Assembly (NCBI GenBank): GCA_003971905.1
Contig: RSEE01000022.1
Coordinates: 186,001 to 250,000, forward strand
Length of the DNA stretch: 64,000 nucleotides
Reading direction: 5' to 3'
Source: Moniliella sp. 'wahieum'
Lineage: Eukaryota
Shown here: one piece after another, positions 122-55,453 of the stretch
Layout: each line of letters begins with the position of its first letter
Numbering within the stretch: the first letter of the stretch is position 1
The notes under the pieces: generated by a model
Told to the model about the DNA's origin: nothing
Seen by the model: only the letters and a program-made list of their open reading frames with translations
Databases searched by the model: none
Position numbers and translations under genes: made by a program

Positions 122-1036
122 CGTGACGTGTATCATTGAAAGGACTCTTGTTGTCACTTTTCCCCATAACCGTTGCATCAATCGCGCGAACCACTGCGGT
201 CCCTACTACTACTAGCCCAAATGTATAGTGCTTTCATCGACTTGTGATGCATTCGTTAGCTCCTGCGACAACATGAATCAGCGGCGTAAACAGAAAACCG
301 TGGAGGACATACATCCGATTTGAAGATGGCCCGCGGGAAGATCGAGTTACAGAAGGACCTGACGCTGCCTGACTGATCGACGCGGCCATAATGCATAACA
401 GCGCCGAGCGCGAACTGCAGCAAATGCCCGACTTTAACCATAAAGTCTCGCACAGCAATCTTCCGGCCACTAGTGACTCCATTTGTTGTGACGAATGCTT
501 TTGGGATACGCTCCTCGGTGAGTTCGGTGAGTACACCGAGAAACAAAAAGGCCACACGAGGATGTGAGAACCAGAGTGCGATTGACACACGCGAGCAACT
601 AACTTTTTAGCATCAGGGCCCAGACCTTCAGGGCCAACCTAAGATGGGAGGCAGTTAGAGTCACTAAACGAGACGGCCTCCAGGGAACAACAGTCGAGAG
701 CCTAGCCCCAATTTTGTCACCATTTCTCTCTTTGCTGATACTGACTACTCTTTGTCACCGTCGCATTTCGCCCTCTACACCTGCACCAAACCTCTGATCT
801 TTCTCATTTCGAGTGTCTCGCTGCCCTTGTCGATTTCGGGATGGCCTTTGGCCGTGAACTGAATGCCATTCCTAGTGAACAATTTACTGAGTAATAACAA
901 GAATGTGGGGCGAAGGAGTAAGAGTATATATACAAGGAGAATCCACCCGTGGAAAGCGCCAAAATCGATCCCTACAATAGTCAATACCTTGGGTGTGATC
1001 AACGTGGCGGGGGCAAACTCTTATCGGACCCGACGA

Positions 1037-1053
1037 TGATCGATGAGATCTGA
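1037..1053. repeat. Mixed TNA-palindrome lattice TGA TCGA TGA GATC TGA
   Basis: Read directly; two different palindromes separated by an identical TGA. Single units also at 1264-1273 (TGA GATC TGA) and 1390-1399 (TGA GGCC TGA). Confidence 0.85.
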
Positions 1054-3195
1054 GAGGCCTCGTCTCTGTGCCTTGAGTTTGACGTAACAACTTCTCTCCG
1101 GTAATTCATTAGTTCGACCATTGTCCCGAAAAGGACGGATAGGAGGCACCCGTCGTCGCTAGCAGCTCATGCCTACAAACCAGCGGCACATGTACACCTA
1201 TATGTCAGCCCAGAACAGAAGCATCGTTAAACACTTTTTGCATTCGCAGAGGGGGACAGCAAGTGAGATCTGAGAAAACACCGTATTCTCCCCTCTCCTC
1301 CACCTCCTGTGGTACGGAGAGGAAAATCCCGTCGTAAGACTAGATGACCACCATGTCTGTATTCAACCTGATCAAGACCGGTTCATGCCTGAGGCCTGAG
1401 GACGGAGTGCCAGTAGGGCTGGCTATACCATAGGTTGTACTTTGCGCCGGTACCTCGAAACGTTTTATTGACACGACGGTTGACGCGCACAGCAATGTTA
1501 TAGACCCTCCACTCTCGTGACGTGGAGATGATAGCGTGGCTAGACAGACAGTACGCGACGCTGGCACTAGGCCACTGCTATGCCTGCGCGAGTGTGCGCC
1601 TTTTCCTATTCTCCTGTGGCATGTGAGCTCTTTCGCTCTTCTCTCCACTACCGACACCGGCTCGACTCTGTACTTGGTTCGCCTTCTCCGTGTTCGGACG
1701 GTTCGGCTCCCTAGCCCGTTCAGTCATCAGTAGGGGGAATATGAGTGCCGGCCAGTTGGTCACGGTGCTACAAACTCGAGCGGCACCCACCATTAAGAGA
1801 CTTTCCTCTCCCCTTCGTCAAGAAGACAAGCGGGCACACCACCAATGATCAACAATATACTTGAGCAGTGGACTAAAAGTCAGTCTTACACCCAAGAGTC
1901 TCGTAATACAGGTCTACCACGATTGGAAGCGAATGGCGAGAGCCAGAGGGGCGGAATCCTGACCTGCTGGCGACTCAACGATCCGCCTCCTCTTTGGTTG
2001 ATTGACACGAACTAGCAGTGGCCCGCCAAAGCCGCGAAATCATCATCGTGCACCGCCTCTCTCCCTCCATCTGTGTGCCCTTTATGAGGATGGGGGAGCG
2101 TCAGGATTTGACGTAGGCAAAGGAAAGGTGGCATGATCTACGTGGTCGGCCTGTACGTTCTTTTGTGTGAGGCATATATTCACGGTGGAGAATGGCCAAA
2201 ACATATATCGCCTACTATGCAATTTATAACCCCACACTCCTGGTACTGTTATGAGGGACTTTGGGGAGAGGGTTATCTGTTCCGTTTGAATTCCTTCTCT
2301 GTGGATAAGGGCCTGCCACACATGCCAGCTTGGCTACTTGGACTTCTCTTTACAGAGACTTCTAACGTACATTATCTCTCTGTTGTTTTTGAGAGCCTTT
2401 TTCTTTCGTCATAGGCACATATAGCTTTATAAGATGGTGGTGTAAAACCGAGAAGGAAAGTGCAGGAGTTGTGGCTAGGAATACCTACCGCATACGTGTG
2501 GCTCCCTTGGATGGACAAGGCATGATATCAAAATCGATGCTGCAGTGAAGCTGATGTGATGGCGACCAACCTCCTTCATCATCCAATCGAGGATTCCGCA
2601 TTGTTAAGAAACGCATTAAGTTGTTAGTACTGCGCGGCCCAGACGAGCGGCGCCGATGGTGGCAGATCCGTCTAATGTTCCTATGCCCAAGTCGTTGTGA
2701 TTGATCCGGGGTCCGTAAGGTGGGGAATGGGCACGTTTCTGCCTGTGATCGACAATGGAGCCATTCACCACATGGAGTTTGTCGGAAAGTGCGTGAAAGA
2801 GAAGAAGTGCGTTGGCCTGATCGTTTCCTACAGAGGCGACTCCAACGGCGAGGGGATAGACCCTCTTTCCCCCCTCCCAGGTCTCATTTTCAGAGGAGTA
2901 TTGGGCCACCATGCTGTACAATATGGGTGAGACGTGGTATATGTCCTTGGTGGGACCACAAAATGTTTCCGAGAGGCCATGCGTTCTGAACCACAAAGCA
3001 TAATCAGACTACTTGCGAGCGTTTGGTGGGAAGAAAAGGCCAGGCCGTTGGCCGCGGATTCAGATATCTCAAGCCCGAATATGTATCAACGAAGTGGGTT
3101 GGCGAGAGTGACACCAGGGGGACAAGACAACCCACAGTGTGTAGATACTAATTAAAGGATAGGATCGGTCTTGTAGGAAAGCACATGGTAATGAA

Positions 3196-3219
3196 TGAGG
3201 CCTTAGGCCTTAGGCCTTG
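3196..3219. repeat. TNA-palindrome lattice TGA GGCC TTA GGCC TTA GGCC TTG
   Basis: Read directly; related GGCC units near 4287-4316, at 4575-4588 and at 4841-4871. Confidence 0.85.
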
Positions 3220-5516
3220 GGCTCGAGGAGACATGTCAAAGAGGGGCTCATGTGGTACGCAGTATTCAGGCTGAGTCCTGAGCCTCAGGAGAGTGAGATT
3301 ATTGTTTGCGGTCGGTTGTTACATGTGTTACACTCGAACATACCGGAAGGAAAAACAAAGACACTTTTGCAGCGCTGTGTCCCACGGGTACTACTATAAC
3401 GCCCACGTAACGCGCCCATAAGTTTTCGGAACCCACGCAACGCCTCCGATTCATCATAGTTGTTTCACAGGATCTCCCGACGCGATCATTGCAAGTTATA
3501 TATTCAGGGAGCCATTCATTGCATTCACCACGCTCGTTCATTCTCTGCTTCTTTTTATAGATATTGGAAAGAAAACTGGAAAGAAAGGTCGCCTAATAGA
3601 TGACATAGATTATCGCGGTAATTACGTAGTTACTGTAAGAATCGGGCGATACGAGTGAGACCAAATACCAAGGGAAGCCAAAGATGCAGTGGTAGGAGAA
3701 GGGAGAACAGGATCGGCGGGGAGAGCAGTGAGACAAAGATTCCCCTGATTAGCTAAGAGGACCGTGCAGTTACTCACTTATCTGTCCCCAAAGCCAGTAT
3801 AGGGACGAGTTGGCAGTAACAACTAGCAAAGATCCACACTGCGGTGTTATCATTGCCACACCAGCCCTAATTGCCCTCTTTACTGAATACCGCCAATATC
3901 GCCCCAACCCCGGTTTCGCTTCGGGTCGGATCCGCCGTCTGCGTACTTGAATAGTACTGTTTTTTGTCGTGAGCCGCTCGTTTCCTCTGAGGGTACCCTC
4001 AGCAATATAAGAATGTGGCTCTATATAGGAGCGCGTTCGTCACTGTCATGAACCCTCTGTGGTGATGACATGCACAGGCCGGTTCGCCGACAAAAGATCC
4101 AGCCAGCTATATGTGTCGAAGGAAAAGAGAGTTGATATATGGTCACGGGATAAAGAAAAAACCCAAGAGGAGGTGAACCAGAACAGGCGATTAAACCATT
4201 ATTGTGACTCACTTACAGGGGGACGTAGCCGCCGAGTGAGGGACGTTTCGAGTGTTACCTCCTTGTGATGCTTATGGTTTTGTATAGGCCTCAGGCCTGC
4301 CTCAGGCCGGCCTCAGGTCTGATTTCAAGGCGATATGCCACATGCCAACTATCATTATCAAGGCGATGGGATCATAACGAACCGTGGTTTTTTTTACATG
4401 TTCATGCCAGTGTTTAAAACGTGTCATGAGGGACAGGAATAGGCCACGGCCATGTGGACTTGCAGTGTTGCACAACGCTGCTGCATATAATCCTCTCAGC
4501 AACACACGCAATGCAGGTCTCGTGGGTAGGCATGCACCACCGGGAAATGATCCATACTATGTTGCCCCTCATCCTGAGGCCTGAGGCCCGATACCTGATG
4601 CCTGATCCTGATGATTGATTCCTTGATATGAGGGCCTGAAGGGTTAATTATTCCTCCAATCGACGAGGCCGAAGTCTGATAGTCCAGGCTGGGGTCGATG
4701 AGGTTGATGGGCGATGAAGCCTCTGGATCTGAGGGATCAGATGCGTGAGAAGGGTTGTCGTAACTTGTGATATGATACGTTCATTGGATGACTGGACCGT
4801 AGACACCTGTAGATGAGACTTTTTGTGGGCGGTTTGGCCCTCAGGCCTCAGGGGCCTCCTGAGGCCTCAGGTGCTGCACGCAATGCAGCGTCAGCAGCGG
4901 GTTTGAACACCCAGGTTTCACCCGTTTTTGTTTGAGTGAAAAATGCGGTGTGGCAAGCAGGTGTGGCGAGGGATGCACCTACCTGATGCACTGATGCAGG
5001 CACCGCAAGTATTATTAGGGGCTCCGCTTGTGGGGCTACATGAGACGTTCAGTTTTAGCGGTTACCGGCTACTAGAACCGGGTATACCATTCGCTGGCGG
5101 TATTACGTTTGTGTGAACTGTGGAGACTCTCTCCGCCGATAGTCGCTTCTCTGTGGTCATTGAATACTGACCCCACACACTTGACATTTGTTTGTTCGTG
5201 AGATGATGTCGAGGATGTTGACGAGAATTTGTGACCAGTACGGATACCGTCGCTTCCGCCTTCGGCTTCTGCTTTCCATCCGAAGTTGGCAGTGTATATA
5301 ACGTAACGTGCAACCCATATGTGGCGCTGGCCACACTATGTATGGTTCACGGCGAGACTGCGCGGTGTGGCTCTCGAGGCCTATGAAATTCGAGAGGATG
5401 TTGTCCTGTGGACTCAGCCTGAGCGAAGAGTCGCCCGCGCATAGCGCTTAGCCTGGGGGCGCACAAATGATTCGGCACAGATTATGTTCGGATCGGTGCG
5501 CGTTATGCGCGTTGCG

Positions 5517-6272
5517 TTACGCGTTACGCGTTGCTAGCGCCTAGCGTTTTATACTCGAGTTGGCCGTTGGACGTGTTTCGCCTGTCTCCGTCACACACAC
5601 CTTCAGAATTGCATCCCTTCTCCGCAGGCACATATTTGCCACATTCACCGACTGCCGCCATGATGCATGATGCATGGTGTGGCGTCTGTATCGTGGGTCG
5701 CTTTGCTCCGCAGGAGCTCAGGCGTGACACATCCAGGCCCTCCGCTGGTGGTCGCGCACAAGAGCACCGCGCCAAGCTTTGAGCTTGAAGCTTGAACGTT
5801 TAGAATGTGCTGAACGTACCGAACTTTTAACGTTTTTTTATGGTTAAACGTTAAACGTTAAACGTCAACGCGTCACGCGTCAACGTTGAACGTTGATTGA
5901 GTACATCGAACATTGATGATCGGATGAGCTCCTAGCGATGATATACTGATTTGCCACAGAAATGTTTCGGTCGTGGTAAGGGCCCAAGACCCAAGGGTTG
6001 GACGTTGGTGCTCCGCGGAGAAGTGTCTAGCCGTTAACCAAACTCCTGCCCATAAGACCACTACTCCTTTCGAAGCCGAGCGTCTGCCGAGTGCATCCGC
6101 ACTGTTGCGTCCTCAGGACTTGTTGTAAAGCTTAGGTCTGCAGAGCGCTGGCCTGATGCCTGACGGGCGACTATGGCAGCTGCTTTGGCGCGCTATGTGG
6201 AGTCAGATCTCAGAAGTCAGTTCTCAGACGTTCAACAAGCTTCAAGCTTCAAGCTTCAAGCTTCAAGCTCCA
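5517..6272. repeat. Dense cluster of TNA-palindrome lattices (CGCG, TGCA, AGCT, ACGT, GATC)
   Basis: 5517-5533 TTA CGCG TTA CGCG TTG; 5661-5674 TGA TGCA TGA TGCA; 5772-5802 AGCT x3 then ACGT; 5845-5896 seven palindromes in register; 6203-6226 TCA lattice; 6235-6272 AGCT x5 at 7-bp spacing with TCA spacers. Confidence 0.9.
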
Positions 6273-6687
6273 ATAAGCTTTAGGGAAGCACTGGGAAGCC
6301 TCCAGCGCAAGTTGCTCATCTTTGTCAGATCATCGATTATCACTTTGGGCGTTAGCTTGCTAGATGGCCGATGAGCGTTTGAGCCCAAATCGGGCGATCA
6401 GGCCGGGCGATAGTATTGTGCGCACCTTGGTTTCGATCAAACCGGCATAAGCTGAAAGCAGCACATCCATGTGGTCTGCTCTGGTCTACCGACCTGGACG
6501 GCACGCCTAGACCTTAGGGAGTGCGGGGGAAAGGCACAGTGTGCCAATGCCCCCTCCAGACTTTCCCTCTGTTGAGGGTGCCCTGCGCACGAACGGGCGC
6601 GGGTGGCATACTATGCACGCTCGCGAGATGCAGGCATGCGGCGCCGCCGGGCGCGGCGGAGAGGCTGCCGGCCGCTTTGCAAGGGCG

Positions 6688-7665
6688 TTACATGTTACAT
6701 GGGCCTGGTGCTGCCCTCGGTATTAGCGTGAGTACTGAGTGGCGTTGCGAGGGCCAGGAGGGTTCCATGTTGCGTGGTTGCATGTTGCATGTTACAAGGG
6801 TACGGATATACTGATGGTACCGATGGTGGTAACCAGTTACCTCATGCTGGCGTATCGCAACTGTCCGTGGATCATACATCGCCCAACGCACCCAGGACGC
6901 TGAGCGAACGCTCCGGTTCGCGGCTTAGCGGCTCAGCGCGACTGGGACTGCTGGAGCGGAGCTGGCCACGATGCGGTCTGCCAGCCGGGCTTCGTTGGCC
7001 TCGCTTGCGGCTGCCGCCCTGCCGAACGAGCGCTTCTTCGGCGCTCAGACGCCCTCAGGCCTCACGCGTCAAGCTTCATCTTGGATTCTAGGCCGGGGGT
7101 GGCAAGGCACGGCAGCGCAGTGCAGGGTGCAGCTGCCCCATCATGCATCACACACCCCATGTCACACATAGCCCCAGACCACCCTGCCCCGGGCACACGT
7201 GCATGCAGGCGCGCCTTGGCCGCTGCCACGACCGGCTACTGCCCCCGTGGGGTGCGGGCTTAAGCGTGCAACCCTACCTCCCTGCCCCCGTGCCGACAGA
7301 AAGCGTCCCCCAACGGCGTGGCAGCCAGCCGTCCCCGACACAGGGCCAGTGGCGGACGGGGGGGAGCGGCCTAACGCGAGTGCTGTATCATGCGCCACGG
7401 GGGAAGCGTCCGCAACCACGCCGTCGGGGCACAGGGCCGTGTGGCTATGTCCGCTTCCGTGCCTCCGCCCCCTCGGATCTGAGTCTCAGACCACAGGCTG
7501 AGGCCAACTGAGCGCTGAGGCGCTCACGCCTCGGCCTGAGGCCACCTCTCCCGCCTCCCGCCTCACCCGTCACCGCGGCCGGACCGGCGCAGGCCACCAC
7601 ACAAAAACGGGACGGGTTCATATATACCCCTCAGGCCTCACGCGTTCGCTTCCTCTCAGATCTCA
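6688..7665. promoter_or_regulatory. Upstream region of the zinc-finger TF with a TATA-like element (~7619-7626) and multiple TNA-palindrome units
   Basis: Units at 6688, 6729, 7055-7078 (GGCC/CGCG/AGCT), 7141, 7509, 7631 and 7656; TATATA about 110 bp upstream of ATG 7735, followed by a pyrimidine-rich leader. Confidence 0.55.
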
Positions 7666-7734
7666 CGCCTTTTATTCCCTCTCCGGCGCAGTCTTGCTTC
7701 TCCCACCACTTTCACTCTTCCCCCTCCCCCCGCC

Positions 7735-9522: not shown

Positions 9523-11160
9523 GCCGACCGCTTCTCCTCTTCCCCCCCTCTGGTTGCCACCGTGAATGGTGGCGTTCGAGAGGCGAGCGTGTGGGAAGAT
9601 GGGACGATACCCTGCCTCTTTTCTCTTTCTCTTTCTCCGTTTGTTTCCTTTTCCTCCTCCTCCTCTCCTCCTCTTCCCCCTCCTTCCGGTTGGTTCCTGA
9701 CTCCTCTCCCTCTTGTGAGCCGGAACCGGTTTGACCTTGTTTGTGGTCTAAGTTATTGTCTTTTCGGTCTTGTCGCCCCCACATCAGTATGGTTATGTTT
9801 CCCTCCTCGCTCTATAACTCACAGACTGTTGCGTGGGTTTACTGGCCTCCTCGGATGCGATCCCCTCGACTGGGACTTGCACATATATTGCTGCACACTC
9901 CATGTTATACGAAGAGGAGATGGATCGATGAGGGAGGGAGGAAGGAATCAGACTGAGATGCTCGGGGGGTAATAAAACCTCGCAGTAGGTAGTAGAGACT
10001 TGGACCAGACTAAGCTGAGCGCTGAGCGCGGATCGCCTGAGCGTTTCTTCTTGACCCGTTAACGCGTTAACCGTCATTTGCAATCACTCGGCTGACTATA
10101 GAGTATGAACTCCCCTGTACAAGGGCTCGCGGTGATCCATACCTCTGATGCTTTGGGGGGGGGAACTCTGAGGTAAAAGAGCGGACAAATGGATCTCTGC
10201 AGTGGCTCCCGCTCTTTCCATCGTATACGGAAAGATGGAAGTCCAACTGCGTAGAGATCAGTATACTGTTGGTGATTTGCGAGGTATAGTAGCGTTTGGC
10301 GTAACACTTGAGATGGGATGTGGACCCCACAACTGCAGGGACTCAGGGACGAGAGGAAGTCACCAGACAGGTGCGTTTTGGAGGGCTACATGCAAAACAA
10401 GAGAAGATCCGTCCACATCTCTGGAACGTATACAGGGGTGAGGCCTGGGGGGGACATCAAGTTGTCTCTGTGCTCGAGCAAGCTAATTCGAGAAACGAAT
10501 GAAGCATACCCAACCTCCTGCCATTGTTACGGGGCGCTCAGGTTTATCTCCCTCGGAGCCCCGTAGTCGTAGACACCTCATCCAAAACATGCGTCAGTCC
10601 CCTAGACTAGCGAGAGGGAGCCGGCGGATACCTTTCCTTGCTGCGCATGATATTGTCCGCAGCCTGCCATGTGGCCGCAAGGGCTCATCGGTACGATGCT
10701 GTGTGCCCATCGCGCCCAGACTTGGTCGAACCCTTGCTACTGGGCCCGATTGCGTAGCGTCAGCGCCTTTGAGAGCGCGGGCTGTGTAGTCTTTCCCTCT
10801 CTGGAAAGATCCCCACGTTTGCTTATACCTGTCTGAGGTATATAAGCAGCCATTGTCTAAGGATGTGGTCCTTATCGACATCCTGTCCCTGTTCACATGT
10901 TCGCCCTGTTACCTCTATTCCACCTTCTACCAGCCTCACAATTCCAACCTACGTCGACTACGCATGGTTACTCCTCAGTAGCGCCTGCTCTTCATTAGAT
11001 TCCGACTGATTTCGCCTCCGCTATCAGTACGTCGAGTGTGGTAACGCCACCGGGAAAGCGCGTTACCCCACAGAGCTCCTGGATGCCTTCAGCTGTCTGA
11101 CGACCTACGTACGCAGCTCTTACTTCGGAGGTCTAACCTGCGGCCTTTGCCCGTTCGTTC

Positions 11161-11736
11161 TCAGATCTCACCCCAGGCCTTGGGGCTGGATCCATATTTC
11201 GCGAGCCCCCCATCCCCTCTGTAACAATGCGCCCGACCTCCCTCTGACACTGCAGCAGAACACCCATCGTAGCGCAAGGATACCATGCTGAACTCGTATG
11301 ATACCCAACACCGCGCAGCCGTCGCGTGGTCTTGTAGTCACGCGTCACGCGGCCACGGGTTACGCCCTCCGGCGTCACTTGACCGCTTGAGCCCCAAGCT
11401 TGAGCCCCTTCAGCTTCAAGCTTCAAGCATCAAATGAGGCTTCGAGTCAAGCTTCAGGGGGATGGCGCCTCCCGCAGGCTTCACGAAAGACATTACGTGT
11501 CGACGTTCGGCGTGCAGAGTACGGAATACATTACGTGTCGACGTTCGGGCGTGGACAGGCGGGGGCTCTGGGACGGTGGCTGGAACGACGCGTGACGAGG
11601 GCGATGCGTGATTGGTGATCTTTGGCACGGCGAGTGGCCCCGGCTGGCTGGGCGCGGGCTGGGCTCCGCGCTGACGCAGCACGAGGGCAGTTGCGGCGGG
11701 CGATGGCGGCTTGGCAGCGGGCGATGTGAGATCTGA
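11161..11736. repeat. TNA-palindrome units upstream of the Sec14-like gene
   Basis: 11161 TCA GATC TCA; 11338 TCA CGCG TCA CGCG; 11416 and 11447 TCA AGCT TCA; 11727 TGA GATC TGA. Confidence 0.8.
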
Positions 11737-11947
11737 GAGGCGAGATCGGAGAGCGGGCGTGCTGCGCTGAGCTGAGTCGCTGCGTCGGCGCGCCGAGGCG
11801 GGCGACTGGCGCTGCGCCCGACCAGAGCCCGCGAGCCAGAGCCCGCGAGCCAGCGCCTAGCCACGCCACGGCCTGCTTTTGCGCCCCCCACCCCCCACGT
11901 ACAGCGCGCCTCGTTCTGACGCTGTCTCTCCTTCTTGGCACCGCACC

Positions 11948-13969
11948 ATGGCCGCACTCCATCCCAGCCCCAGCATCGACAGCTTCTGCTCCGCCGTCCC
12001 TCGCTCTCCCCCAGCGACCCGCCCCGGCCCTCTGCCCCCTGCCCCTCTGCCCCCTCTGCCCCTCCGCCCCCCCCATCCCCCATGCCACGCCGCCCACGCC
12101 GGCGCCCCGCCTCGCCCATCCCGCTCCCGCGGACGACTGGGCTCTCGTGTCCCAGCTGACCACCCCCTCGCGCCGCGTCTCTCTCCCGCCCCTTCCTGCC
12201 GACCCCCTCGCCCACTCTCTGCCCAAGCCGGGCTCGGACCCCGTCTCGGCCGCCAGCAACCGGGTGGGTGCGCGGGCAGGCGGTCTTGCCCCCCTCTCTG
12301 CTGGAGCAGCGCATCTCGGCGTTGATCGGGTCCTCCTCCGAAGTCTCCTTGCCCGTATTTAACGATCCCTTTGGCGAGACGGCTGGTGTGCCGCTCCCCG
12401 CTCACCAGCCCGACGTCGCACACCTCGGCCTCGGTCCGTTCCGCGCGCTCGAACCGATCGCGCACGTCCCTCGCCTCGTTTCTCTTGCCTTCTTCCCTTC
12501 GCTTCCGGCGCAAGTCCCGGCAGCCGTCCAACGCGCTTCCGCCGCTCGCTGCCACCGCCGGCGCCCACTGCAGGTCCACCATCACCATCGCTTCCACCGC
12601 CGCGTCCGATTCGGCATCGGCTTCGCCCTCGGCATCTGGATCGGCATCGGTCTCTGCCGCGGCGCTGGCACCGGCCTCGGCATCCTCGCCTGCGCTCCCA
12701 GTCCCGCTCCCGGACCACTGTACACTGACGCGCGGCGGGAGCGGCGCAACGCGCTGTACGCCCGTGGTGGAAGGCGCGGTGGTGCATTCGGCGCCAGCCT
12801 CGGCTCGTACCTCGGCCGAACGCGAGACGCGCGCGACGGCACAGGCGTGCTGGCGCCGCGGGTGTACCAGTACGTGCCGCCTCCGCCCGAGCGGCACGGC
12901 AAGGAGAAGGTGGTGACTACCTACACGATTCCCGAGGGCCATGTGGGCAACTTGACCGCGGCGCAAGAGACGGCGCTGGCGCAGTTCGTCTTGGGTCTCC
13001 ACACTCAGGGGGAGCTGCGGCCATTCCCGACGCCGGCGGACCCCGTGTACCCGCTGCGGTGATCCGACCGGACGCGGTCCCGGACGCGCCCCCGGCGCCT
13101 GCTGGGGTGGAGCTAACGCCGCCGCCGCCAGCCGACGTTGAGGCGCGCGGCGGGCCGCCGTGTCTCGCGACACAGCAACGCATCCACCTGCTTCGCTGGC
13201 TGCGTGCGCGCGATTGGAACGTGCCCGCTGCGATGGACATGTACCGCCGTGCGCACCGGTGGAAGTACACGTCGCCGGCGGATGCGAGTGCGGCGGCGAT
13301 TGAGGCCGAGGTCGGCGTGCCGCCGTTGGATTTGGAGCACAAGTTGGCCCATGGCTGGACCTGGCCCGAGGCTGGCTTTGTTGCCCACCATGGCTGGCGC
13401 ATGTATTTCCACAAAACCGACAAGCTCGGTCGTCCGATCTTGATCCAGGACTTGGCCCAGATCGATACTGCGGCCATCTTTGGGCGCGTGACCGGCGCAG
13501 AGATTGTGACCAACTTTGCGGTCACGCTCGAGGCGGCGATCCGGTACCAGTATGCGTGTGCGTCGGCGCAGGTGCCGCGCACGGTGGAGGACAACTTGAT
13601 GATCATCAACGTCCAAGGCTTGGGGCTCAGCACGTTCTGGGCCATGAAGAACGAACTGCAGACGCTCCTGGCGCTGTTGGACAAACTTTCCCGAGCTCTC
13701 GGGCCGCGTGCAAATCATCAATGCACCCTGGGTGTTTGCCACCATGTTCAATTACATCAAGGCCTGGCTGCCCGCCGCGACGCGCGACAAGATCGATATC
13801 AAGGGCAGCGACTATGCGCGCACGCTGCGCGAATGGATCGCGCCCGATGCCCTGCCCGCTCCTTGGGCGGCTCCTGCACGTGCGGCGACCATGCGTGTGC
13901 GTGGGACGGCGCGCAGACCCAGCGCGCCGCCGCGGCCGTGGCCAGCGTCGCGTCCTTGGGCAGCGGCCT

Positions 13970-14002
<33 letters not shown>

Positions 14003-14237
14003 GTCCGGCTTGGCACTGGCCACGCCGCTGACGACACCAGGCGCCTCGTCGGCCGCCCTGGCGGCCATGGGCACCGACACGGCCAAGGCCGGCACGCTGC
14101 CTGCCACCCAGTTTGAGACGCTCGCCTTGCCGCCCGTGCCGGGGGGGCTGTGCACGGTGACGAATGCCGGGCCGTGGCCGCGGACGTATGGCGGGTACCA
14201 GCACCTGCGCTTTGGCCCGAGCTTGGTGGCGCACTGA
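11948..14237 (+). CDS. Sec14/CRAL-TRIO lipid-transfer domain protein with a long low-complexity N-terminus (frameshifted)
   Basis: GHVGNLTAAQETALAQF and LLRWLRARDWNV (CRAL-TRIO N), YFHKTDKLGRPILIQ, IINVQGLG, QIINAPWVFATMFNYIKAWLPAATRDKIDI; split over ORFs 12268, 13059 and 13708. Confidence 0.85.
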
Positions 14238-14441
14238 GTGGGAGCACTGGTGGAGGAGGAGGGTTATGGTACTGGTACTGGTGCTGGTACGGAGGATTGA
14301 CGACGACGCACATATAGGATGGACGCGATGCATACAATCATTTGAGTTGGATGGGAAGAACCCCAGTGGGGGTTAGTAAGATCGAAGAGTGTGGTGTGAT
14401 GCTGATGGATAGCCGCGCCCTGGGCAGCAGCCACGCGCAGG

Positions 14442-14788
14442 TCACATGTCACATGTCACATGTGGCTGTCACATGCCCTGACAGACATCCCATCACGTGC
14501 CACATCACATGTCGCATGGGGGCATGTCACCTGTCACCCGGTATCAACATACCAGCGCATCCCACACGCTCACCCGCCCGGCCTCTCGGCCTCGGCTGCT
14601 CTCCTCGCCCGCATCCAAGGATAGCACAAACGCCAGGCACCAGCCCCGCACCGCACCTGTGTGTGCGCAGCCGCCGCGGGGGCTGCCTGGCGCATGTCAC
14701 ACACGTCACAGCGCCATGCCATGCATGCCACCGCATGCATCCCACATCCCACATCATGCATCCCACATCACACATCCCACATCCCACG
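14442..14788. repeat. (TCA CATG)n lattice and degenerate 7-mer (TCC CACA / TCA TGCA) array upstream of adenylate cyclase
   Basis: 14442-14462 TCA CATG x3; 14733-14788 eight 7-bp units in register. Confidence 0.8.
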
Positions 14789-15254
14789 CGGGCCCCCAGG
14801 CGCAGTGTGAGCTTCGCACGGGCGGTGGCGGGGTGCTGCTGCTGCATGCTGCATGCTGGGGGCTGGCCTGGGGCGGACCCGCACCGCCTGCACGCACGCT
14901 GCACCCCGCAGCCGCTGGGCGATGCATGGGGCGGGTGCTCCCGTGCGCGTGTCACGTGGCGTGCGTGGGCGCTGCTACACCCCCCGCAGCCACGCGCGCC
15001 GGCTGGGCTGCGGCGCTGCTCCCGCCTGCTGGGTGCCCAGCCTGGGCGCCCGCCCCGCTGCTGCGCCGCCACCTGCGATGCGTCAGCGTCACCGCCACCC
15101 CATCGGAGCACGCCGTCACGCGTCACAGCAGGCCGCCATGCAGGAGCAGCAGCCTGCCGGGCACCGCGCGGCACCCCCCCACCCCACCCCACCCCACCTT
15201 GCCCCACCCACACCTCCTGCCTGCTGCGCCTCCATCCTGCTCCGCCGCGCCCCC

Positions 15255-18200
15255 ATGGTCTTGCGCCGCCGCGCTCTCTCCAGCTCCGCCACCCTCTCCA
15301 GCACCGCCCCCCCCCCCCCACGCCTCCGCCGCCTCCCTCGCCCCCTCCAGCGCCTCCGCCGGCACCCCCGCCGCCCCCGCCGCCGCCCCCGCCTCCGCCT
15401 CCGACCACACCCGTCGCCCGCGCCGCCAAGCGCGCGGCGGCACCATCCTCGCCATCCTCAAGCATGCCACCCACGCCGCCCACCCGTCCCCCGCTCCCTC
15501 CGACCACCCGTCCCCCGCCCCTCTGCTGGCCCGCCGCAGACCCAGGGCGCAGGCCGCGGCCGCGATCGCCGCCTCCGCACCCTGCCTCTGGCTGGTTCCG
15601 CCGCGGCGTATGCCTCGGCCTCGGCCTCTGCCTCTGCCTCTGCCTCTGCTCCCGTCCGTCGCTCGCCCACCCCCATCACGCGTACTCCTCCCCCGCCTCC
15701 ACCCCGCCGGTAGCCCCAAAGCCCATGCCAGCGCACCCCGCCCCGTCCCCCTGCCCTTCCCCTTGCCCTACCCGCTGCCTCTGCTCTGCCTCCACCTCCA
15801 CCTCTACCCCCCGCGTGGCTGGCCAGGAGAGCACGCCCAGTGTGCTGGGACTCGGACTGGGCGTGGAGGAGCAGGCACCCAGCAGTGCGAGGACGAGGAG
15901 CGGCAGCCGCCGCTTCCCTACACGCCTCCGCCCCGCCCCGGGCTCCCGGCGACCAGCTTTGACTTTGAACGGCCCCGGCTGGCTCGATTCTCGGCCCTCG
16001 GGCGAGGCCGCCTACTCGCATGGATCCGCCTCGCCCCCGCTTGCCCCACCGTGGCTCGCCCGCCCGCCCGCCAATGCCGCCTTGGACACCGCCGCCCACC
16101 CGGACGCCGACCCGCTCGACCCCGAGACGGCTTTCCATTCGCCCCCGTCGCCCGTCGGCTCTGGCCACGTGCCGCTGCCACCGTCCGGCCCTGGTCCTGG
16201 CCCTGGTCCTGGTCATCATCATGGCATCTTCCCCTGCTGCGCGCCATCCTGGCAGTGGTGCCCGGGCCCCGTCCCAGCCTCGAGTCGGCGGGTACCCCCC
16301 CTTTTGCCCCATCCCCATCCTCACTCTTCTCTGCCGCCTGCCACCACTTCCACCCACCGCTCTCCCAGCCCCCCCGGCTCTCGCTCAGCTTCGACGCCAC
16401 GATCGAGCTCGGCCTCCCGGTCGGCTTCTGCCTCGCGCTCCCGCTCCCACATACGTACGCGTAGCCATTCCCGCGGCCGATCCGCCTCCCCCGCTACGTT
16501 GGCCGAACATCCCTCGCTCGCAATGGACCGCCCGCGCCGCCCCAACCGGTCGCATTTGCCCTTTCATCCCAAGAAGCGTGCTGCCCACGACACCCAGTCC
16601 CAACGTTCTCTTGATGCCGGGCTGACCAATGTGCTGGCCACTTCGTCCTCTGATACCTCCCTGCGCCCTGCTGCTGATGACGACGACGCTGGCTCCACCA
16701 CCCATCCCCCAATCACGATCACGGGTTCCGGATTCACTTGGGTGGATTGTTCAAAAAACATCATCACCGTCATCCTGCCCCTTCTTCTCACCACCATTCC
16801 CATCACCATCACAACTCCTCCCCTGGCCCTGTCCAAGCAGCACCGTCTCATTCTGTCTCAGCAAGCACAGCAGCGCATCTTCCGTCCCTCCCCTCTGTAC
16901 TGGATCCAGCACGCACCCCATCCCCAGCTCACCCTTCGGCCCACGATCCCCTCCGGTCCTCCACATCGCTCCCTACCCCTCCGGGAACGAATCAACCTGT
17001 CCCGGCCTCGCCTGGGCTCGAAGTGGGGGGGCCCTGGCCATTCTTTGCCCCGGCCCACCCCTACACCCTGCCGCCTGGGTCCAGTAGTCCAGCAGCCCCC
17101 TCGGCTCCCATCGCACATGAGAGCAGCTTTATTCCCGCTCGCCCGGCTCGCCCCGGCTCCTGGCAGCCGCGCCGCCAGCAACGATCGACCTCCGCTTTGA
17201 TCCCAACGACGTGACTGCCTTTGTGGATCCCCACCGGCTGTCTCGACCCTCGTCCCCATCTCGGTCTCGCTCCACCTCGCGTCCACCCCGGTCTGGATCT
17301 ACGTCGCGTGCGCCGTCGCGCGCATCCCCGCCCCGACTGCCCTCCCAGCCCGTTTCCCGCGCCGCCTCGCCCATCATTCGGGTCCAGCTCCTGTGGTGCA
17401 AGAGGAAGATAAGATGGGCAAACCAGGGCCGTCGGTCCCTGCCTCATCGCGAATAGGTAGGCCATTGAAGGGGCTGCGCTCTCACTCAGACACACGTGGT
17501 ATGCGCGGCTCCCCGTTCCTTCCTACTTTCCCTCCATTTGGCATTCCTCCCAGCAAGAAGTCCATCCCCTGCCCCCACTTCCACCCCCACGCCCACGCCC
17601 ACGCCCCCGCCCCCTGCGCCGCCTCCCCACCCATCGTGCCGCCGAGTCGGTACTGCAACGCCCACCTATTCAGCCCCTTGCCACCCCACACGGCCCCCCG
17701 CAGTCCAATCCTTTCTGGCCTCCAGGCCGATTCCGCGTCGGACGCGCTCCTTCCCGAGCGCGGCAGGGTTCGATCTCTGGCTCTGGCACCGGTTCGGTGT
17801 CGGGTTCGGGCTCGGTGTTGGCCGCTGCGTCGTGGTCCGCCCCGGACAGTTGGGCGGTCAATCCGCCTTCGCCCCCCTCGTTGAGCTCGCGACGAGAGGA
17901 GGAAGAAGAGGAAACGTGGATGCGCTACTGGACAGCAACACAGTGCTCCGGCTCAGTTCATTCCACCGGTAGTCTCGCCCGTGGCTGGGAGCGAAGAGAC
18001 GCCGGTCACTGCGCCCCCGCGCGGCCCGAACAATTGGATGGGCACCGGATTCCTGGGCTGTTCAAGCGGAAGGCGGAGGGTCGGAACCGGGCGAGGAAAG
18101 GTCTTCTTCCTCCCTCGACACGGTTTCTACCCCGCAAGAGAAGGAGGCCGAATGCGCGCCAACGGAATGGCTCCCAGCCCGCAGCTCCTCCCCCGACTCG

Positions 18201-26092: not shown

Positions 26093-27326
26093 ATGATGGA
26101 GTTGAAGCAGGACGAGAACTGGCGGCAAATGCGCGAGGTTGGTGGCAGCACGCACGAACCACACGGCCGTCGGACGCCCGAGGCTGTCAAAATGCATATA
26201 AATATGCCAATGTAACGCCACTCTGTTCGCTCTCTTCGAACCGGAGATCCACGCCCCCCAACACTAAATCCATCGATCAGAGACATACATATCTTGCGTC
26301 GATAATCGCCGATAATTGATAACACTGCAGATTTAATATTTACCCCGCATCCGCAGTAACAAAAACCCCAATCGGATCCTTTATGCTTCGTATTCCTCCT
26401 CCCTCGCGTGCACTTCAACATATATAAACGTCAATTGGCGCTGATACTCTGATCCGCTGACGCGGGAAGCTGACTGAAGGAGGTAGATCTCCGGACTCAG
26501 GGTAGGTACAGGAGGCTATCGCACGTTTGGGCTATATTGTGGACCGAAGCTCATCTCCCTGACAGTGACCTATATTTATTAGTGTCATAATTGAGGCATT
26601 GGGGGGGACCGTTGAGATGACTGCGCAGTGGAGTTTTGCATGTGAGATATGACTGCGTGTAGTTTTGCAGCTGTGGGACATACTATATTGCCTTTGACTC
26701 CTATACAGAGTTTGGGAACAAACGAGACGGACGCTAAACAGAGAGCGTTCTTTGTGGTTTCTTCCTTCACCCTCTGCCGCTCTTTTCCTTCGTCTTTGGG
26801 TTTGTCAGCTATACGCTCCGCTATAGTACGTTGTTTTGTGTGGTGGGTACATTCTTCCTCCATAGATATTCGTTTCCCGTATCTCCTTTTTCTCCTTAGT
26901 AGTTGTGCCTCGTTTCGGGTATGACAAGCATCACATTTACTAATATGTGGACCACACAAAAGTGTAGAATAGCTCTCGTTCCAGGATAAGAGTCTCTCCA
27001 ATATACATTCTCAACATCCACAATCCACATACATATATCCACATACATATATACAACCAGAGTTCCATCCCTCGTGCGTGATGCACGCACAAATGGCCTC
27101 ACTCTGGTATCAGCCAAAGGCTAACGCCGAGGTTCCATCATAGGGAGAGAGAGTTAAAGATCTGCCAGAAAGATATACCTACTCCACACCGCATCTTCAG
27201 AATGTTGAACGCCGGATAGCATGACGTTATTCCGAGGCAAGAGAGAAATGATGGACGAGGGCTCGTTAAATGAGAAAAAGGGTGTGTGTGTTGCTTGTGA
27301 CAAAATAGGCCCAACTTTCCTTCCCT

Positions 27327-34720: not shown

Positions 34721-35706
34721 GCTGAGGAAGCGGCGGGACGAACGAATCGAAAGGAGAGAGGGCTGAGAGGGGAGAGGCGATAGGGGGAATGAGCTGGGGG
34801 ATATGATTGTGTAGAGAGTGCTTGGGGAAGGCATATATATAAGGTGAATCCACTGCATGCAACAGGGTGTAGCCTCGTGCAGGGCTCTCGTTCTACTCTC
34901 CGTACAACTAAAAAGCAGAGGAAGGTGCATGCCTCCGTGTGTCGCAGTGACCTCCTGCTATCGGGTATGCCCGCCCTCAACGTTCAACAGGGGGTGTGGG
35001 ATCTTCGCCAGGTCCCAAACGATAGAGAGTGCTCCCCAAGCCAACACACAGCGCGGGTGGCCGTATTCAGGTGCTAATGAACAGCACATGTGTTAGTGGG
35101 GGTCGCACAGAGCTCCGCAATAGCGTATTATTCTATTCGAAGAGAGCTTCCCTCCTAAGCAATGTGGGGCCCCTTCTGTGCCTCCACAAAAGTTGCGCTC
35201 CTGTATAGGTGCAGACACAGCCAGGTAGTCAATGCCACATGTATAGGCCAGAGGGAACCGCTAATAGCGGACGAGGGCGAAGGGGAAAAAAGGTGTGTGC
35301 TGTGCGAGTTCGCCCGCAAATGAGGCACAGAGCACGCCGATGTGAGAGGTGATACTATGTGATGATGATAAGATAAGATGAAACCTACTCTGCCTTATTG
35401 GCTACTCTGCCTTACAGCACCAACGTGCGATTGAAATCTAGAGCACAAGGGAAGAGGAGGCTGCTCAATGATTTCGCAGCTATAGTACGTTCCTATTACA
35501 CCGGTCAAAAGCCGAACTCAAGCTCCAATTGGCAACCTTCTCGAGCTCATTGCGGCCAGTGTATTGCCCTCGGCCCACGCACGTGCCAGAGGCATACGCT
35601 GTTGGTCGCACCAACGCGCTCGAACTGACTGTACTGATCAATCCGCTGTGGGTTTTTGAAGAGTACTCCATCCGCGTCACGCACCCCACACCCACGCTAT
35701 AGGTGT

Positions 35707-35728
35707 TCAACGTTCAACTGAACGTTCA
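35707..35728. repeat. ACGT lattice TCA ACGT TCA ac TGA ACGT TCA
   Basis: Read directly; a related inverted copy lies at 53502-53530. Confidence 0.8.
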
Positions 35729-37504
35729 ATATACTGCGTGTGGACATGTGCATGGAATGTGTGTGATGCGTGGCAATATACAAACGATGGATATAATGCC
35801 CTACACCCACGGTAATCTCTACTCTTCCGCGTCGCTCAGGGCTGCTCAGGCCTCTAACCACCTCGACCCAATCGGTGGCAAAAACAACAGCAAAATGCGC
35901 ATGCAGCTCATGCACTGGCGATTGCACATTCCACCCTTTGCCCCCCTGCTCTGATCCCACCCTTTGCCCCTTCTTCTCCCGATTCCCACGCAGCATTCTG
36001 TTTTGTGAAGAATCTCATTCAATACCGGCTACTCCCCGTCCAATATATCCACAAAATCACCTTGTCGGGGGTTTTAATAACCGTGCGTTTATACTGCGTT
36101 TTTGATGAAACGTCTGTTGATGGAAAGGTGATTTTCCTTCAAGGGTTATGCTGTACGTGGCGCTCGGGAAGTTTTTATTCCTGGACACAGTCCTGTATGC
36201 CGTTTTGGCATCTATTCTAAACACACTTCTCAGTCCCGTTCGACTATCGAGAGAGAGCCTGCGGACACGTCCATGGCGGAGATATCATCCGCGGCCCGCG
36301 CCATGATTGCTTGGGCTCATCGGTGCGATGCTTTGTGCTCATCGCGCCAGCCTTGGCAGAACCTACTGTTACCTGCTAGAAAATTCCCCAAATTATGTTT
36401 ATATACCTGTGTATGAGGTGCATGAGGCACTTGAGGCTCTTTCCATCTGAATATGTTAAGTATAGCCTCTATTAGGGCTCGCTTGTTGCGGTGGCCTTAT
36501 CGAACATCCCGTTACGCCTCTTCTGTTACACCTGCTGCAGCACCTGTTCACCTTATTACATCTGTTCCTGTTCCAACCTTTCCCTACATCTCTCCCCCCC
36601 TTCCACCTTATAGCCAGGATTACTCTCACAAAATACTAAGCGCGTTTGATCTTCATTACGACTCCGTCTGATTCCGCCTATTACAGCGCGTGAGTGTGTG
36701 GTAACGCCCCTGGTCGTCTTACTACGCAGAGTTCCTGGACCCTTTCAACTGGTCTGAAGACGACCTACGTATGCTACTCCTACCTCGGAGGGTCTGACCT
36801 TTGCACGCAGACACAGCCACCCAAACTAGAGGGTCTCTCCTCGCATCTGCACCGCTCGGTTCGACCAGGATCTGAGGCCGGACATGCCTTAGGCCTTACG
36901 TGGCTCGATTGGCTGTCCAACGTTTTGCATGCCTAAACGACAGGTGTGGGTTCCACCTCCCGGGGTTGAATGATGCATCGCTCGCTATACTGTGTGGACC
37001 ACACAACAGGGGCGTTGGAGGATCACGGATGGGGCTTGGAGGTGGAACGTGCGGACCACACAGGTAATGTGAGGAACTCGGATAGAAACAGAGGTTGCGC
37101 ATAACCCGAAGGGGATACATGAGGAGGTTACAACATCTGCGGAACGCGGGGAGAAGGAGCTGCATCGACTGTTGCATTTTATTGGAGAGCACAATATTGA
37201 ACCGGAATGCGACAAAAGCAAACGCCAATGGTCATTAATTGACCGCCCGATGATCATCATCGCATATCGTCATCGTCCATCGACATCGTCTTCGCTACCC
37301 CACCTTTTGCGTCAATATACCTCGCCGCCCACACCCTACGACACGCCTGCCCTTCAAGCTTTTAGCATACAGCTATGCAGTGTCTCTCCGCCTTTTTGAT
37401 ACGCGCGCGGTGGCCGCGGCTGCGACGACCCAAAGATGGCGGCGAGTCTTACTGACGGACGACGGAACTGGGGGTAGTACGTGGTGGCCATATAGCGAAG
37501 CTAG

Positions 37505-37608
37505 TGAAGCTTGAAGCTTGAAGTTGCCTAGTCGCCAGGCCACTCGCCCAGCCTTGTCACATGTCACACGGCCGAATAGAGTTCCAGGTGCGGCAGGTTT
37601 ATCGATTA
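37505..37608. repeat. TNA-palindrome units upstream of GYP7
   Basis: 37505 TGA AGCT TGA AGCT TGA; 37557 TCA CATG TCA; 37599 TTA TCGA TTA. Confidence 0.8.
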
Positions 37609-37843
37609 CCTAAATCGATAAGCAGCCGCTCCCCCGTGCGATGCCGGCGGCCGCAGGCAGGCAGGCATGGCGCCGGTGGGTGAGCGCATGGAGCTGTGCG
37701 CTCGGCCAGCCCCAGCACCTCCACCACCCATCTGCCCGCCGCCAACCATCTCCCAGCCGTCTCCGCCGCTCGCAGCCGCGCGATGATCGCCGTGCTCGCC
37801 GCTGGTGATTCCCGCCGGCGTCTTCTTCCCATCCACACCGCCC

Positions 37844-41952: not shown

Positions 41953-42621
41953 CGAGCGTCTCTTATTGTGCGCCCCTGCCCCCCTCCCCACCTCGCGTCT
42001 TCTCCCTCCTTCCCCTTCCCATACTGTCTTGGGTACGCCTTCACGATCGCTGTTTTCGCACCCGCCATACCCCTACCCGACGCTCCTTGTTGTCCTCATC
42101 TGTGCTCCTTTGTTTCCCCTACTACGTCTCTTTCCCCTTTTACCCCCCTCCCTTTTTCCCCCTGCCCCTGATAGTCCCTTCCCTCGCCCCGCTGCTACTC
42201 CAAGGCTGCTTCATGTTTGCCTGTCTTGATTTTTGTATAAATACGACCTGTCCACCTTCTTTACGTGTTCCAACTGGCGCGGGCGGAGCCTCCTACTGTG
42301 CATAAGCGAAACGTACGTGTCGCTCTAAACAAGTTTTGCTCTAAAGTCTAGGCTCAAAAAGAGCGAAGTAGTGGAAAACATGGCTGATGCAATGGGCAGG
42401 CCGATAGTCAGTGGTTAGTCGAATGACGGGGGGGATGGTATGGTTACTAAACGAGACCGCACGGGAAATCCCAGATGATGGCATAGTTGATATATGATTT
42501 ACATGGAAGGTTTTGTTTGGCTGGGCATGGTGTGGGCGCCCTCCATGGATGAATAAACAGTTGACGAACAATTCATACTGAGGGTTACACTCAGGAGACA
42601 GATGGGGGGCTATGTACAATT

Positions 42622-43492: not shown

Positions 43493-43656
43493 GGGCAGGA
43501 CTCGTGACGAAGGGAGTCGGTGGTGGTTAGGTGGTGGTGCAAAAGCAAGACACCAGGGTATGTACGTAGGTGCCTCAGGGCCAGAAAAGTCACATGGCCA
43601 GAACATTTCCGCTGCATCGGTGCAACTGGGCCACCTGAACCACCGGGGCGCGTAAA

Positions 43657-43764
43657 CGCGTAACGTTAAACGTTAAACGCCCTAAATATTAAATCTCGCT
43701 AAAGTGCTTGTCCCGCGAATCGTCCTTGAAGCTTGAAGCTTGAAGCTTGAAGCTTGAAGTTTCA
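43657..43764. repeat. TNA-palindrome lattices in the URA3 promoter
   Basis: ACGT TAA ACGT TAA (43663-43676); TAA ATAT TAA (43683-43692); (TGA AGCT)x4 TGA AGTT TCA (43727-43764). Confidence 0.9.
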
Positions 43765-44111
43765 ATAAGGCGCACGTGGGCAGGAACAAAGAACCAGCGC
43801 TTTCATGGGGAATCGATACCCTCGGCCGACATGGAATGGTGCCCCAATTCGGTACTGGCGACAGTCGAAAAGTCTTGGTGTGCTAGAAGAGATACGCAAG
43901 CTGGGCGACGGTGCGGCAGCGTGGTCCGTCTTATGAGTCGGCGAAGCGGCAACAACCGTTTGTGCTCCGCTACGTTTGCAATTTGCCTACCTTAGGGTTA
44001 TTGCAAAACGTAGGCGAAGGGACAGAGGAGGCCCCTCGCCTACTGAGCTCGCTCAACTACGTCCAGCGTTCGCTGGCAACTCGTTCCCCGGTGGTAACAA
44101 ATCGGGTGTTG

Positions 44112-55452: not shown

Positions 55453-55453
55453 G

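Follow-up and report, generated by a model that had tools for sequence, protein, structure and literature searches.

Muta1, Hermes, Transib and RAG1 are described as forming hairpins on flanking DNA, which host enzymes such as Artemis open and end joining then turns into footprints (PMC5499845). The generic footprint of a hairpin formed on the flank (hAT, MULE, Transib/RAG) comprises two direct copies of the target and a loop-free inverted complement of the flank. Both are found in the DNA considered here, a 64-kb stretch of contig RSEE01000022.1 (positions 186,001 to 250,000; hereafter the window), in which a TNA triplet, a 4-bp palindrome and the same TNA again form short units, mostly with the palindrome copied from the neighboring bases. 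With their possible origin in mind, we also refer to these units as scars. TNA-centred +7 palindromic scars, or the heptamers themselves, are described nowhere in the literature that we searched, a coverage that leaves most subscription journals outside.

P-nucleotide footprints are known in a fungus from Ac/Ds in Candida. The Ac/Ds scars in Candida, yeast and plants are reported to consist of deletions and of P-nucleotide palindromes that have the complement of the border base at their centre, with 28 scar types among 128 excision events in Candida (PMC5873905). Ac/Ds, a hAT element active in plants, budding yeast and Candida albicans, resembles the window in keeping both target copies, in its short P-nucleotide palindromes and in end joining, but its scars are heterogeneous and odd-centred, whereas those of the window are even-centred (Acd-d'c'T), amount to almost a single product and always lie at TNA. 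Duplications made by hAT elements are usually 8 bp long, and 7 bp in hAT7 (PMC12730594); the +7 and two +11 scars of the window fit 7 bp, but 5 + 2 or 4 + 3 (bases duplicated plus P nucleotides) would give the same common product. In Basidiomycota, 7-bp duplications are reported for hAT7 (Pucciniales) and Kyakuja (KDZ; Laccaria), which share the phylum with the window scars, and their duplication has the length preferred for these scars below (PMC12730594).

What V(D)J joints and Transib excision have in common with the window is that the last 2-3 bases of the flank recur as an even-centred inverted copy, consistent with a hairpin closed exactly at the border and nicked about 2 nt from the tip. 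Artemis opens hairpins at a 2-nt offset. Unlike the window scars, the coding joints of V(D)J recombination vary widely and lack a target duplication, and the 5 + 2 reading associated with Transib/RAG fits the common product but not the +11 products. PIF/Harbinger (3-bp TWA/TNA duplication) and Tc1/mariner footprints are similar to the window scars in having a short duplicated target, four bases and the short duplicated target again; the canonical Tc1/mariner footprint is TA, element-end bases and TA. The intervening bases of these two groups come from the element ends and are constant per family, whereas those of the window derive from the adjacent flank sequence at 41 of 48 two-copy loci. Excision of mPing is reported to be mostly precise (PMC4561436). 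In a survey of 1,726 fungal genomes, Transib is reported as the one DNA-transposon superfamily that is missing, hAT as ubiquitous, and CMC and KDZ as present in Basidiomycota (PMC5751038).

A preliminary description of the window had proposed hairpins and P nucleotides, with hAT, Transib or PIF/Harbinger as possible agents. The loop-free inverted copy of the flank agrees with the first part of this proposal; the agents that were named are not supported as such. The window palindromes, even-centred on A c d - d' c' T, lack the odd centring on the complement of the border base that is reported for hAT (PMC5873905). The duplications of Transib are 5 bp long, and the surveyed fungi are reported to lack this superfamily (PMC5751038); the window proteins are closest to those of Ustilaginomycotina. 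The TNA core of PIF/Harbinger is present, but no flank-derived palindrome can arise from a 3-bp TNA duplication by itself, and the four intervening bases follow the flank in at least 14 forms.

Structure of the TNA units

The non-random TNA pattern is confirmed as real, and it is stronger than the preliminary description stated. The window holds 68 units in 56 loci (48 with two copies of the triplet and eight arrays of 3-5 copies), where 1.9 units are expected. When all 64 trinucleotides were scanned for X3-pal4-X3, that is, the same trinucleotide on both sides of a 4-bp palindrome, 161 matches were obtained; TCA (31), TGA (24), TAA (7) and TTA (6) make up the 68 TNA matches, and the remaining 60 trinucleotides give 0-5 each. 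Under an order-3 Markov null for same-TNA pairs, a spacer of 4 occurs 108 times against 28.5 expected, and the palindromic spacers among these number 68 against 1.9. Palindromic spacers of 2 and 6 stay at chance level (7 against 6.25 and 1 against 0.4). In a control of 736 kb of unrelated metagenome loci, TNA-type matches number 59 and other X3-pal4-X3 matches 1028 (5%), compared with 68 and 93 (42%) in the window. At a spacer of 3, same-TNA pairs show a mild excess (51 against 29.4); a unit-like cc TGA GGC TGA gg at 46054-46066 has a 3-base spacer that is GGCC minus one base.

The most frequent 12-mers of the window all consist of TNA, a 4-bp palindrome, TNA and two further bases, the top counts being 10 for TCAAGCTTCAAG, 7 for TGAGATCTGAGA and 5 for TGAGGCCTGAGG. 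Written as T-N-A-c-d-d'-c'-T-N-A-c-d, this 12-mer has 84 perfect copies against 0.5 expected. For any five-base word (W5) followed by the reverse complement of its last 2 bases and by W5 again, both strands together give 125 matches against 10.4, and those starting with TNA are 84 against 0.2. Other lengths of duplication and inverted copy have TNA-start counts of mostly 0-17; the larger counts outside the dominant form are TNATNA (108 against 84.2 expected) and plain 7-bp tandem arrays (42 against 0). The examples quoted earlier are all present: TGAGA-TC-TGAGA (1264, 11727, 46082), TCTCA-GA-TCTCA (7654, 11159, 57070), TGAGT-AC-TGAGT (6729) and TAAAT-AT-TAAAT (43683).

Half of the palindrome equals the two flanking bases in 59 of the 68 units (left 40, right 44, both 25), where the chance of a match on either side is 1-(15/16)^2, or about 12%; the preliminary description had found 22 of 26. 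Counted by locus, 41 of the 48 two-copy loci match, 12 on the left only, 15 on the right only and 14 on both sides, and at least two of the seven without a match (11445, 53500) are one base short of one. One-sided matching, earlier put at about 13 cases, is seen at 27 of the 48. These 27 loci repeat 12 of 14 bases, and the two that do not repeat are the flank bases in inverted complement. Slippage cannot have produced such loci, and the earlier argument that plain 7-bp slippage is insufficient stands. Left and right outcomes are about equal (12 and 15), and both together occur at one site twice, at 1035-1055 and 45367-45387, where an array carries two different palindromes, each dictated by its own flank. 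The first of these arrays (GATGATCGATGAGATCTGAGA) has, as had been suggested, exactly the sequence to be expected if an ancestral GA-TGA-GA had undergone one event to the left and one to the right, and the second is explained in the same manner. At 7053-7080 the simple two-flank rule fails: only the first palindrome, GGCC, matches a flank, CGCG and AGCT match none, and the array fits no model that we built.

The central N is copied directly and not complemented, with 68 cases of TNA-pal4-TNA against 7 of TNA-pal4-TN'A. Snap-back and quasi-palindrome template switching, which would complement the central N and need a loop or microhomology, are thereby ruled out. A two-step origin, palindrome first and duplication later, was rejected for want of a pool of intermediates; TNA sites at which a 4-bp palindrome follows but no second TNA reach 9.0% against a background of 6.5%, a mild excess. 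The event is single-step. A loop-free inverted copy is the hallmark of a hairpin nicked off-centre, which gives P nucleotides, and from it we infer a hairpin intermediate as the natural reading of the sequence.

Exactly one rule of the 12-mer is broken at the first T in 16 cases, at the second T in 3, at the first A in 8, at the second A in 9, at N in 7 and at the palindrome positions in 7 and 4, with nulls of 0.4-1.9 for all of these classes. The A beside the copied flank is obligatory (position w2 of the word is A in 100 of 112 matches, the rest being near null); the far-side T is preferred but not obligatory (84 of 100). The 16 near-perfect units with another base at the first T mostly have C there (e.g., CGA CGCG TGA CG; examples at 6235, 11586, 45505 and 45546), and include five CGA cases. 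Because first-T violations number 16 and second-T violations 3, the data suggest that the second T is made as the complement of A, that is, as part of a 3-nt inverted copy from Acd to d'c'T. Of the 27 one-sided events, 18 have G immediately before TNA on the side that was not copied (background 26%, binomial P = 1.3e-5), above all as GTGA, with examples at 1262, 6727, 7629, 11725, 45679 and 57070; the copied side, with an equivalent count of 8 of 27, has no such bias (Fisher P = 0.013 against the non-copied side). The copied dinucleotide is never TT, AA or TA (0 of 41, against about 15% of the flanks beside TNA; P ~0.001), and GA and GG are the commonest (7 each).

Palindromic targets (cd = b'a') account for 14 of the 41 flank-matched events against 1/16 expected, and TNA-pal4-pal4-TNA occurs twice in the window (4302 and 45688; null 0.17), both times exactly as abTNA-cdd'c'-b'a'ab-TNAcd. 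The common product may be read as a 5-bp duplication with 2 P nucleotides, as a 4-bp duplication with 3, or as a symmetric 7-bp duplication of abTNAcd in which the 2-3 bases beside the junction would be replaced by P nucleotides of the other end. The symmetric nnTNAnn form appears to fit somewhat better than 5 bp with 2 P nucleotides, because TNA is then central, as expected of a dimeric enzyme, left and right outcomes are equal, palindromic targets are in excess and there are two +11 products. The preliminary description had proposed the 5-bp form with 2 inverted nucleotides: TNA with two flank bases is indeed repeated around an inverted copy, and it is the length of the duplication for which 7 bp is the somewhat better fit. 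A target with two-fold symmetry about N would be expected to give left and right outcomes in equal numbers. The palindromic-target excess would arise, under the 7-bp duplication, because the self-complementary tails of the two ends are mutually compatible only at such targets; it fits either compatible tails or a dimeric target preference. The +11 products would not be expected from a 5-bp duplication, and that at 4300-4320 is as predicted for two copies of the 7-bp duplication CCTCAGG, each with 2 P nucleotides. The support from the +11 products is weak, since a later 4-bp slip could also account for both.

Possible excision scars and the alternatives

Our tentatively preferred reading, which we place a little short of probable, is that the scars are donor-site footprints of one or more cut-and-paste DNA transposons with a TNA-centred, symmetric 7-bp target duplication and flank hairpins. 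The structure of the units, their statistics, their symmetry of orientation and their restriction to non-coding DNA are observed; the hairpin, the 7-bp duplication and the element are deduced. Insertion would give abTNAcd-element-abTNAcd, and excision, with nicks exactly at the element border, would close both flanks as symmetric hairpins by RAG/Transib-type chemistry. A host nuclease would then open each hairpin 2-3 nt from the tip, leaving self-complementary 3' tails, (A)cd d'c'(T) at the left end and (A)b'a' ab(T) at the right end. At a palindromic target (cd = b'a') the tails would anneal and be ligated; otherwise one tail would be kept and the other clipped, and the outcome would be abTNA-cdd'c'-TNAcd or abTNA-b'a'ab-TNAcd, a net gain of 7 bp. 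Rarely, both tails would be kept, for a net gain of 11 bp. Every event would make another TNA, so that arrays could grow.

Several observations weigh against such an origin. A transposase domain is found by Pfam in 0 of 164 open reading frames (ORFs) of at least 130 aa, in agreement with the earlier statement that the window encodes no transposase. The window contains no terminal inverted repeats (TIRs) of at least 11 bp flanked by identical nnTNAnn and none of at least 13 bp flanked by TNA, and an inverted-repeat scan of it yielded unit-versus-unit or low-identity pairs only, with no real TIRs. The uniformity of the scars is unusual for end joining, as one type dominates with 84 copies and other lengths mostly reach 0-17, and the even-centred palindromes are unlike the odd-centred ones of hAT. 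Fungi are reported to lack Transib, the known symmetric-hairpin family, and the genomes of Ustilaginomycotina to be compact, with few repeats (PMC5751038). The density is also high, with 53 of the 56 loci falling in intergenic-like blocks (~23 kb), on 4.7% of the 1123 TNA sites there. The symmetric model leaves unexplained the obligatory A beside a relaxed far T (16 against 3 violations), the G of the non-copied side (18/27) and the absence of TT, AA and TA among copied dinucleotides (0/41); the last two fit no other model that we built either. A plain 7-bp duplication of a non-palindromic target is seen once only, at 14525.

The near-absence of other scar types is compatible with an enzyme-determined reaction, possibly that of a host or domesticated nuclease. 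A host enzyme acting without any mobile DNA is, in our judgement, unlikely: a domesticated transposase or other nuclease would cut TNA with a stagger and hairpin at least one end, and the +7 would be the stereotyped mis-repair of a programmed or accidental break. It would account for the lack of an element or transposase in 64 kb and for a high scar density in a lineage described as repeat-poor. The extreme uniformity (84 perfect 12-mers, other lengths near chance) suggests an enzyme-determined product, and the one-sided requirements (obligatory A, relaxed T, non-copied-side G) suggest an asymmetric reaction at a single site. However, one cut and one hairpin add inverted bases only, and a direct repeat of 4-7 bp needs staggered nicks and fill-in; no single enzyme with both activities is known to us. 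Transposon target duplication, on the other hand, predicts the balance of left and right outcomes as well as the +11 products and the palindromic-target excess.

It is quite unlikely that the same hairpin scar derives from a shorter duplication, whether 5-bp TNAcd with 2 P nucleotides or 4-bp NAcd with 3 (d'c'T), made by a relative of the CACTA/Mirage/Chapaev/Transib group, whose duplications are 2-5 bp long. CMC elements are reported in Basidiomycota (PMC5751038), and duplications of 2-3 bp in the Plavaka and EnSpm families (PMC12730594). The products would be sequence-identical to those of the 7-bp duplication at most loci. A 3-nt inverted copy is possible, as suggested by 16 cases of xNAcd-d'c'T-NAcd (x not T) against 3 second-T violations; x is the C of CGA in five of them, and the usual change at CG sites is C to T, not T to C. 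In a shorter duplication, however, TNA would lie off-centre and P nucleotides would always be on one end only, and neither the two +11 products nor the palindromic-target excess would be predicted. To our knowledge, hairpin chemistry has not been demonstrated for CACTA-type enzymes. Transib, as mentioned, is reported absent from fungi (PMC5751038).

Ordinary heptanucleotide microsatellites, produced by slippage of the 7-bp interrupted palindromes abTNAb'a', are a very improbable explanation. Perfect 7-bp tandem duplications in the window do consist of TNA and a 4-bp palindrome in 28 of 42 cases, and the arrays of 3-5 copies (8 of 56 loci) probably grew partly by slippage, but the 12 of 14 bases repeated at 27 of 48 two-copy loci contradict head-to-tail repetition of a whole unit, and the TNA restriction and the two-palindrome arrays at 1035 and 45367 are left unexplained. 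A selected, promoter-enriched cis-regulatory motif of tandem TGA/TCA half-sites for a dimeric DNA-binding protein would suit the concentration of units in intergenic blocks, two of them between divergently oriented genes, and the mild clustering (15 gaps of at most 60 bp against 7.2), but is scarcely credible given at least 14 different palindromes, dictated by local flank and not by a consensus, and about 14 decayed copies with one mismatch. A sequencing or assembly artefact was set aside by reasoning, as a structured 7-bp insertion at non-coding TNA sites with decayed copies corresponds to no known error mode.

Genomic setting and catalogue of the units

Long ORFs (at least 200 codons) cover 54% of the window and hold 7 of the 68 units, an avoidance that should be expected of frameshifting neutral scars. 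Within the intergenic-like blocks the loci are about twofold clustered (P = 0.002 for the short gaps given above), and the blocks in which units are concentrated include 34.9-38.5 kb and 43.4-46.3 kb, each situated between divergently oriented genes. Another 14 or so copies differ from the perfect form by a single substitution, which indicates that the process, though recent, is not instantaneous; arrays in visible decay also occur in the dense regions.

The window has few long ORFs, and the Pfam matches are ordinary eukaryotic gene pieces split over several frames. They include an adenylate-cyclase-like gene (LRR, PP2C and cyclase domains), a P-type ATPase, a RabGAP, an OMP decarboxylase, a PDR-type ABC transporter, a forkhead protein and a protein kinase. 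The ATPase ORF has its best database relatives among the Ustilaginomycotina (Tilletiaria anomala 52%, others ~40%), and the window is therefore treated as basidiomycete, probably of the subphylum Ustilaginomycotina. Positions 12000-18000 are very GC-rich (0.67-0.72); long open frames overlap there on both strands, none of them with a Pfam match. One of these, the 960-codon frame 14318-17197, holds the units at 14440 and 15114. It probably belongs to the adenylate-cyclase-like gene, either as a low-complexity 5' portion or as sequence upstream of it.

Diverged non-coding paralogous segments (73-79% identity) pair 10594-11139 with 36230-36800, 55995-56242 with 59895-60110, and 44172-44283 with 55870-55983. 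The first of these pairs (73-75% identity) is too diverged for the site of the unit at 11161 or at 36889 to be recognized in its empty state. A search of metagenome contigs with the URA3-like ORF as the query, in which 80 loci were kept, gave a best identity of 55% (most 46-54%) and no close relative, and hence no orthologous empty sites for comparison; these loci served solely as the composition control described above. Seven perfect 10-bp palindromes of the form TNA-pal4-TN'A are also present, several of which directly adjoin ordinary units (35705-35728, 5871-5898), possibly as a minor product in which the inverted copy is longer.

Table 1. Units, arrays and related features in the window (lower-case letters, flanking bases; an empty cell, no entry)
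Position	Form	Composition	Flank match and remarks
96-109	two-copy	ga TCA CATG TCA ca	right only
387-400	two-copy	ca TAA TGCA TAA ca	left only
1035-1055	three-copy array	ga TGA TCGA TGA GATC TGA ga	TCGA mirrors left GA, GATC mirrors right GA
1262-1275	two-copy	ag TGA GATC TGA ga	right only; inferred empty site agTGAga
1388-1401	two-copy	cc TGA GGCC TGA gg	both; perfect 7-bp tandem copy of palindromic target CCTGAGG
3201-3214	two-copy	cc TTA GGCC TTA gg	both
4300-4320	+11 product	cc TCA GGCC GGCC TCA gg	both flank-derived palindromes kept
4573-4586	two-copy	cc TGA GGCC TGA gg	both
4590-4630	decayed TGA-spaced repeats
4839-4852	two-copy	cc TCA GGCC TCA gg	both
5515-5528	unit	cg TTA CGCG TTA cg	dense cluster 5515-5898
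5659-5672	unit	ca TGA TGCA TGA tg	same cluster
5784-5797	unit	ct TGA AGCT TGA ac	same cluster
5843-5863	array	gt (TAA ACGT)x2 TAA ac	same cluster
5871-5884	unit	cg TCA CGCG TCA ac	same cluster
5885-5898	unit	gt TGA ACGT TGA tt	same cluster
6201-6214	two-copy	ag TCA GATC TCA ga	right only
6240-6267	four-copy array	ct (TCA AGCT)x3 TCA ag
6686-6699	two-copy	cg TTA CATG TTA ca	right only
6727-6740	two-copy	cg TGA GTAC TGA gt	right only
7053-7080	four-copy array	cc TCA GGCC TCA CGCG TCA AGCT TCA tc	three different palindromes
7139-7152	two-copy	ca TCA TGCA TCA ca
7478-7490	inverted repeat	TCTGAGTCTCAGA	6-bp inverted arms, single central T; same TGAG/CTCA material as the units
7507-7520	two-copy	ac TGA GCGC TGA gg	none
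7629-7642	two-copy	cc TCA GGCC TCA cg
7654-7667	two-copy	tc TCA GATC TCA cg
10014-10027	unit		both
11159-11172	unit		left
11336-11349	unit		right
11414-11427	unit		both
11445-11458	unit		none (one base from right-flank match)
11725-11738	unit		right
14440-14460	three-copy array	gg (TCA CATG)x2 TCA ca	inside 960-codon frame
15114-15127	two-copy	cg TCA CGCG TCA ca	inside 960-codon frame
26331-26344	two-copy	at TTA ATAT TTA cc	left only; sole unit between 15.2 kb and 34.9 kb
34975	unit		right; intergenic block 34975-37610, between P-type ATPase and RabGAP-like genes
35705	unit		both; same block
36887	unit		left; same block
37503-37523	three copies		right; same block
37555	unit		both; same block
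37597	unit		none; same block
42486	unit	palindrome TATA	none; range 42486-44588
43665	unit		both; same range
43681	unit		right; same range
43725-43759	five-copy array	ct (TGA AGCT)x4 TGA ag
44575	unit	palindrome TATA	none; range 42486-44588
45367-45387	two-palindrome array	ca TAA TGCA TAA TCGA TAA tc	TGCA from left CA, TCGA from right TC
45665-45710	decaying TGACTAG array		units at 45665, 45679 and 45697
45686-45703	+11 product	ag TGA CTAG CTAG TGA ct
46039-46052	two-copy	cg TCA CGCG TCA cg	both
46080-46093	two-copy	tt TGA GATC TGA ga	right
46275-46288	two-copy	ag TCA TCGA TCA tc	right
51763	unit		both; range 51763-57083
53500, 53519	units		none; same range
55100, 55161	units		right; same range
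57070	unit		left; same range
4860, 5880, 10060, 35719, 42675, 45564, 55130	10-bp palindromes	TNA-pal4-TN'A

Implications for genome evolution in the lineage

The broader claim that could be made of these loci, and which we regard as doubtful, is that a previously undescribed break-and-rejoin activity writes a deterministic +7 (x-N-A-c-d to x-N-A-c-d-d'-c'-T-N-A-c-d) at TNA and is a major shaper of promoters and intergenic DNA, its source being either a new nnTNAnn transposon lineage with RAG-like hairpins or a host or domesticated nuclease. By a rough estimate, its per-site rate would be of about the same order as that of base substitution. If the units are excision scars, a fungal genome poor in repeats preserves the traces of numerous cycles of insertion and excision, by an element that has since become rare or disappeared, with a scar load of about 1 in 20 intergenic TNA sites in the window. 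The scars would then also be a readout of hairpin opening and joining in a basidiomycete, with a fixed 2-3 nt offset and one tail kept. Symmetric flank hairpins in a fungus, if true, would bear on the history of RAG/Transib chemistry, Transib being reported missing from fungi. If no element is involved, the units would represent a new endogenous mutational signature. Either way, new TGA, TAA, TCA and TTA triplets and restriction-site-like palindromes are introduced into promoters and heptamer arrays are seeded, and the annotation and population-genetic models of this organism should allow for the +7 process.

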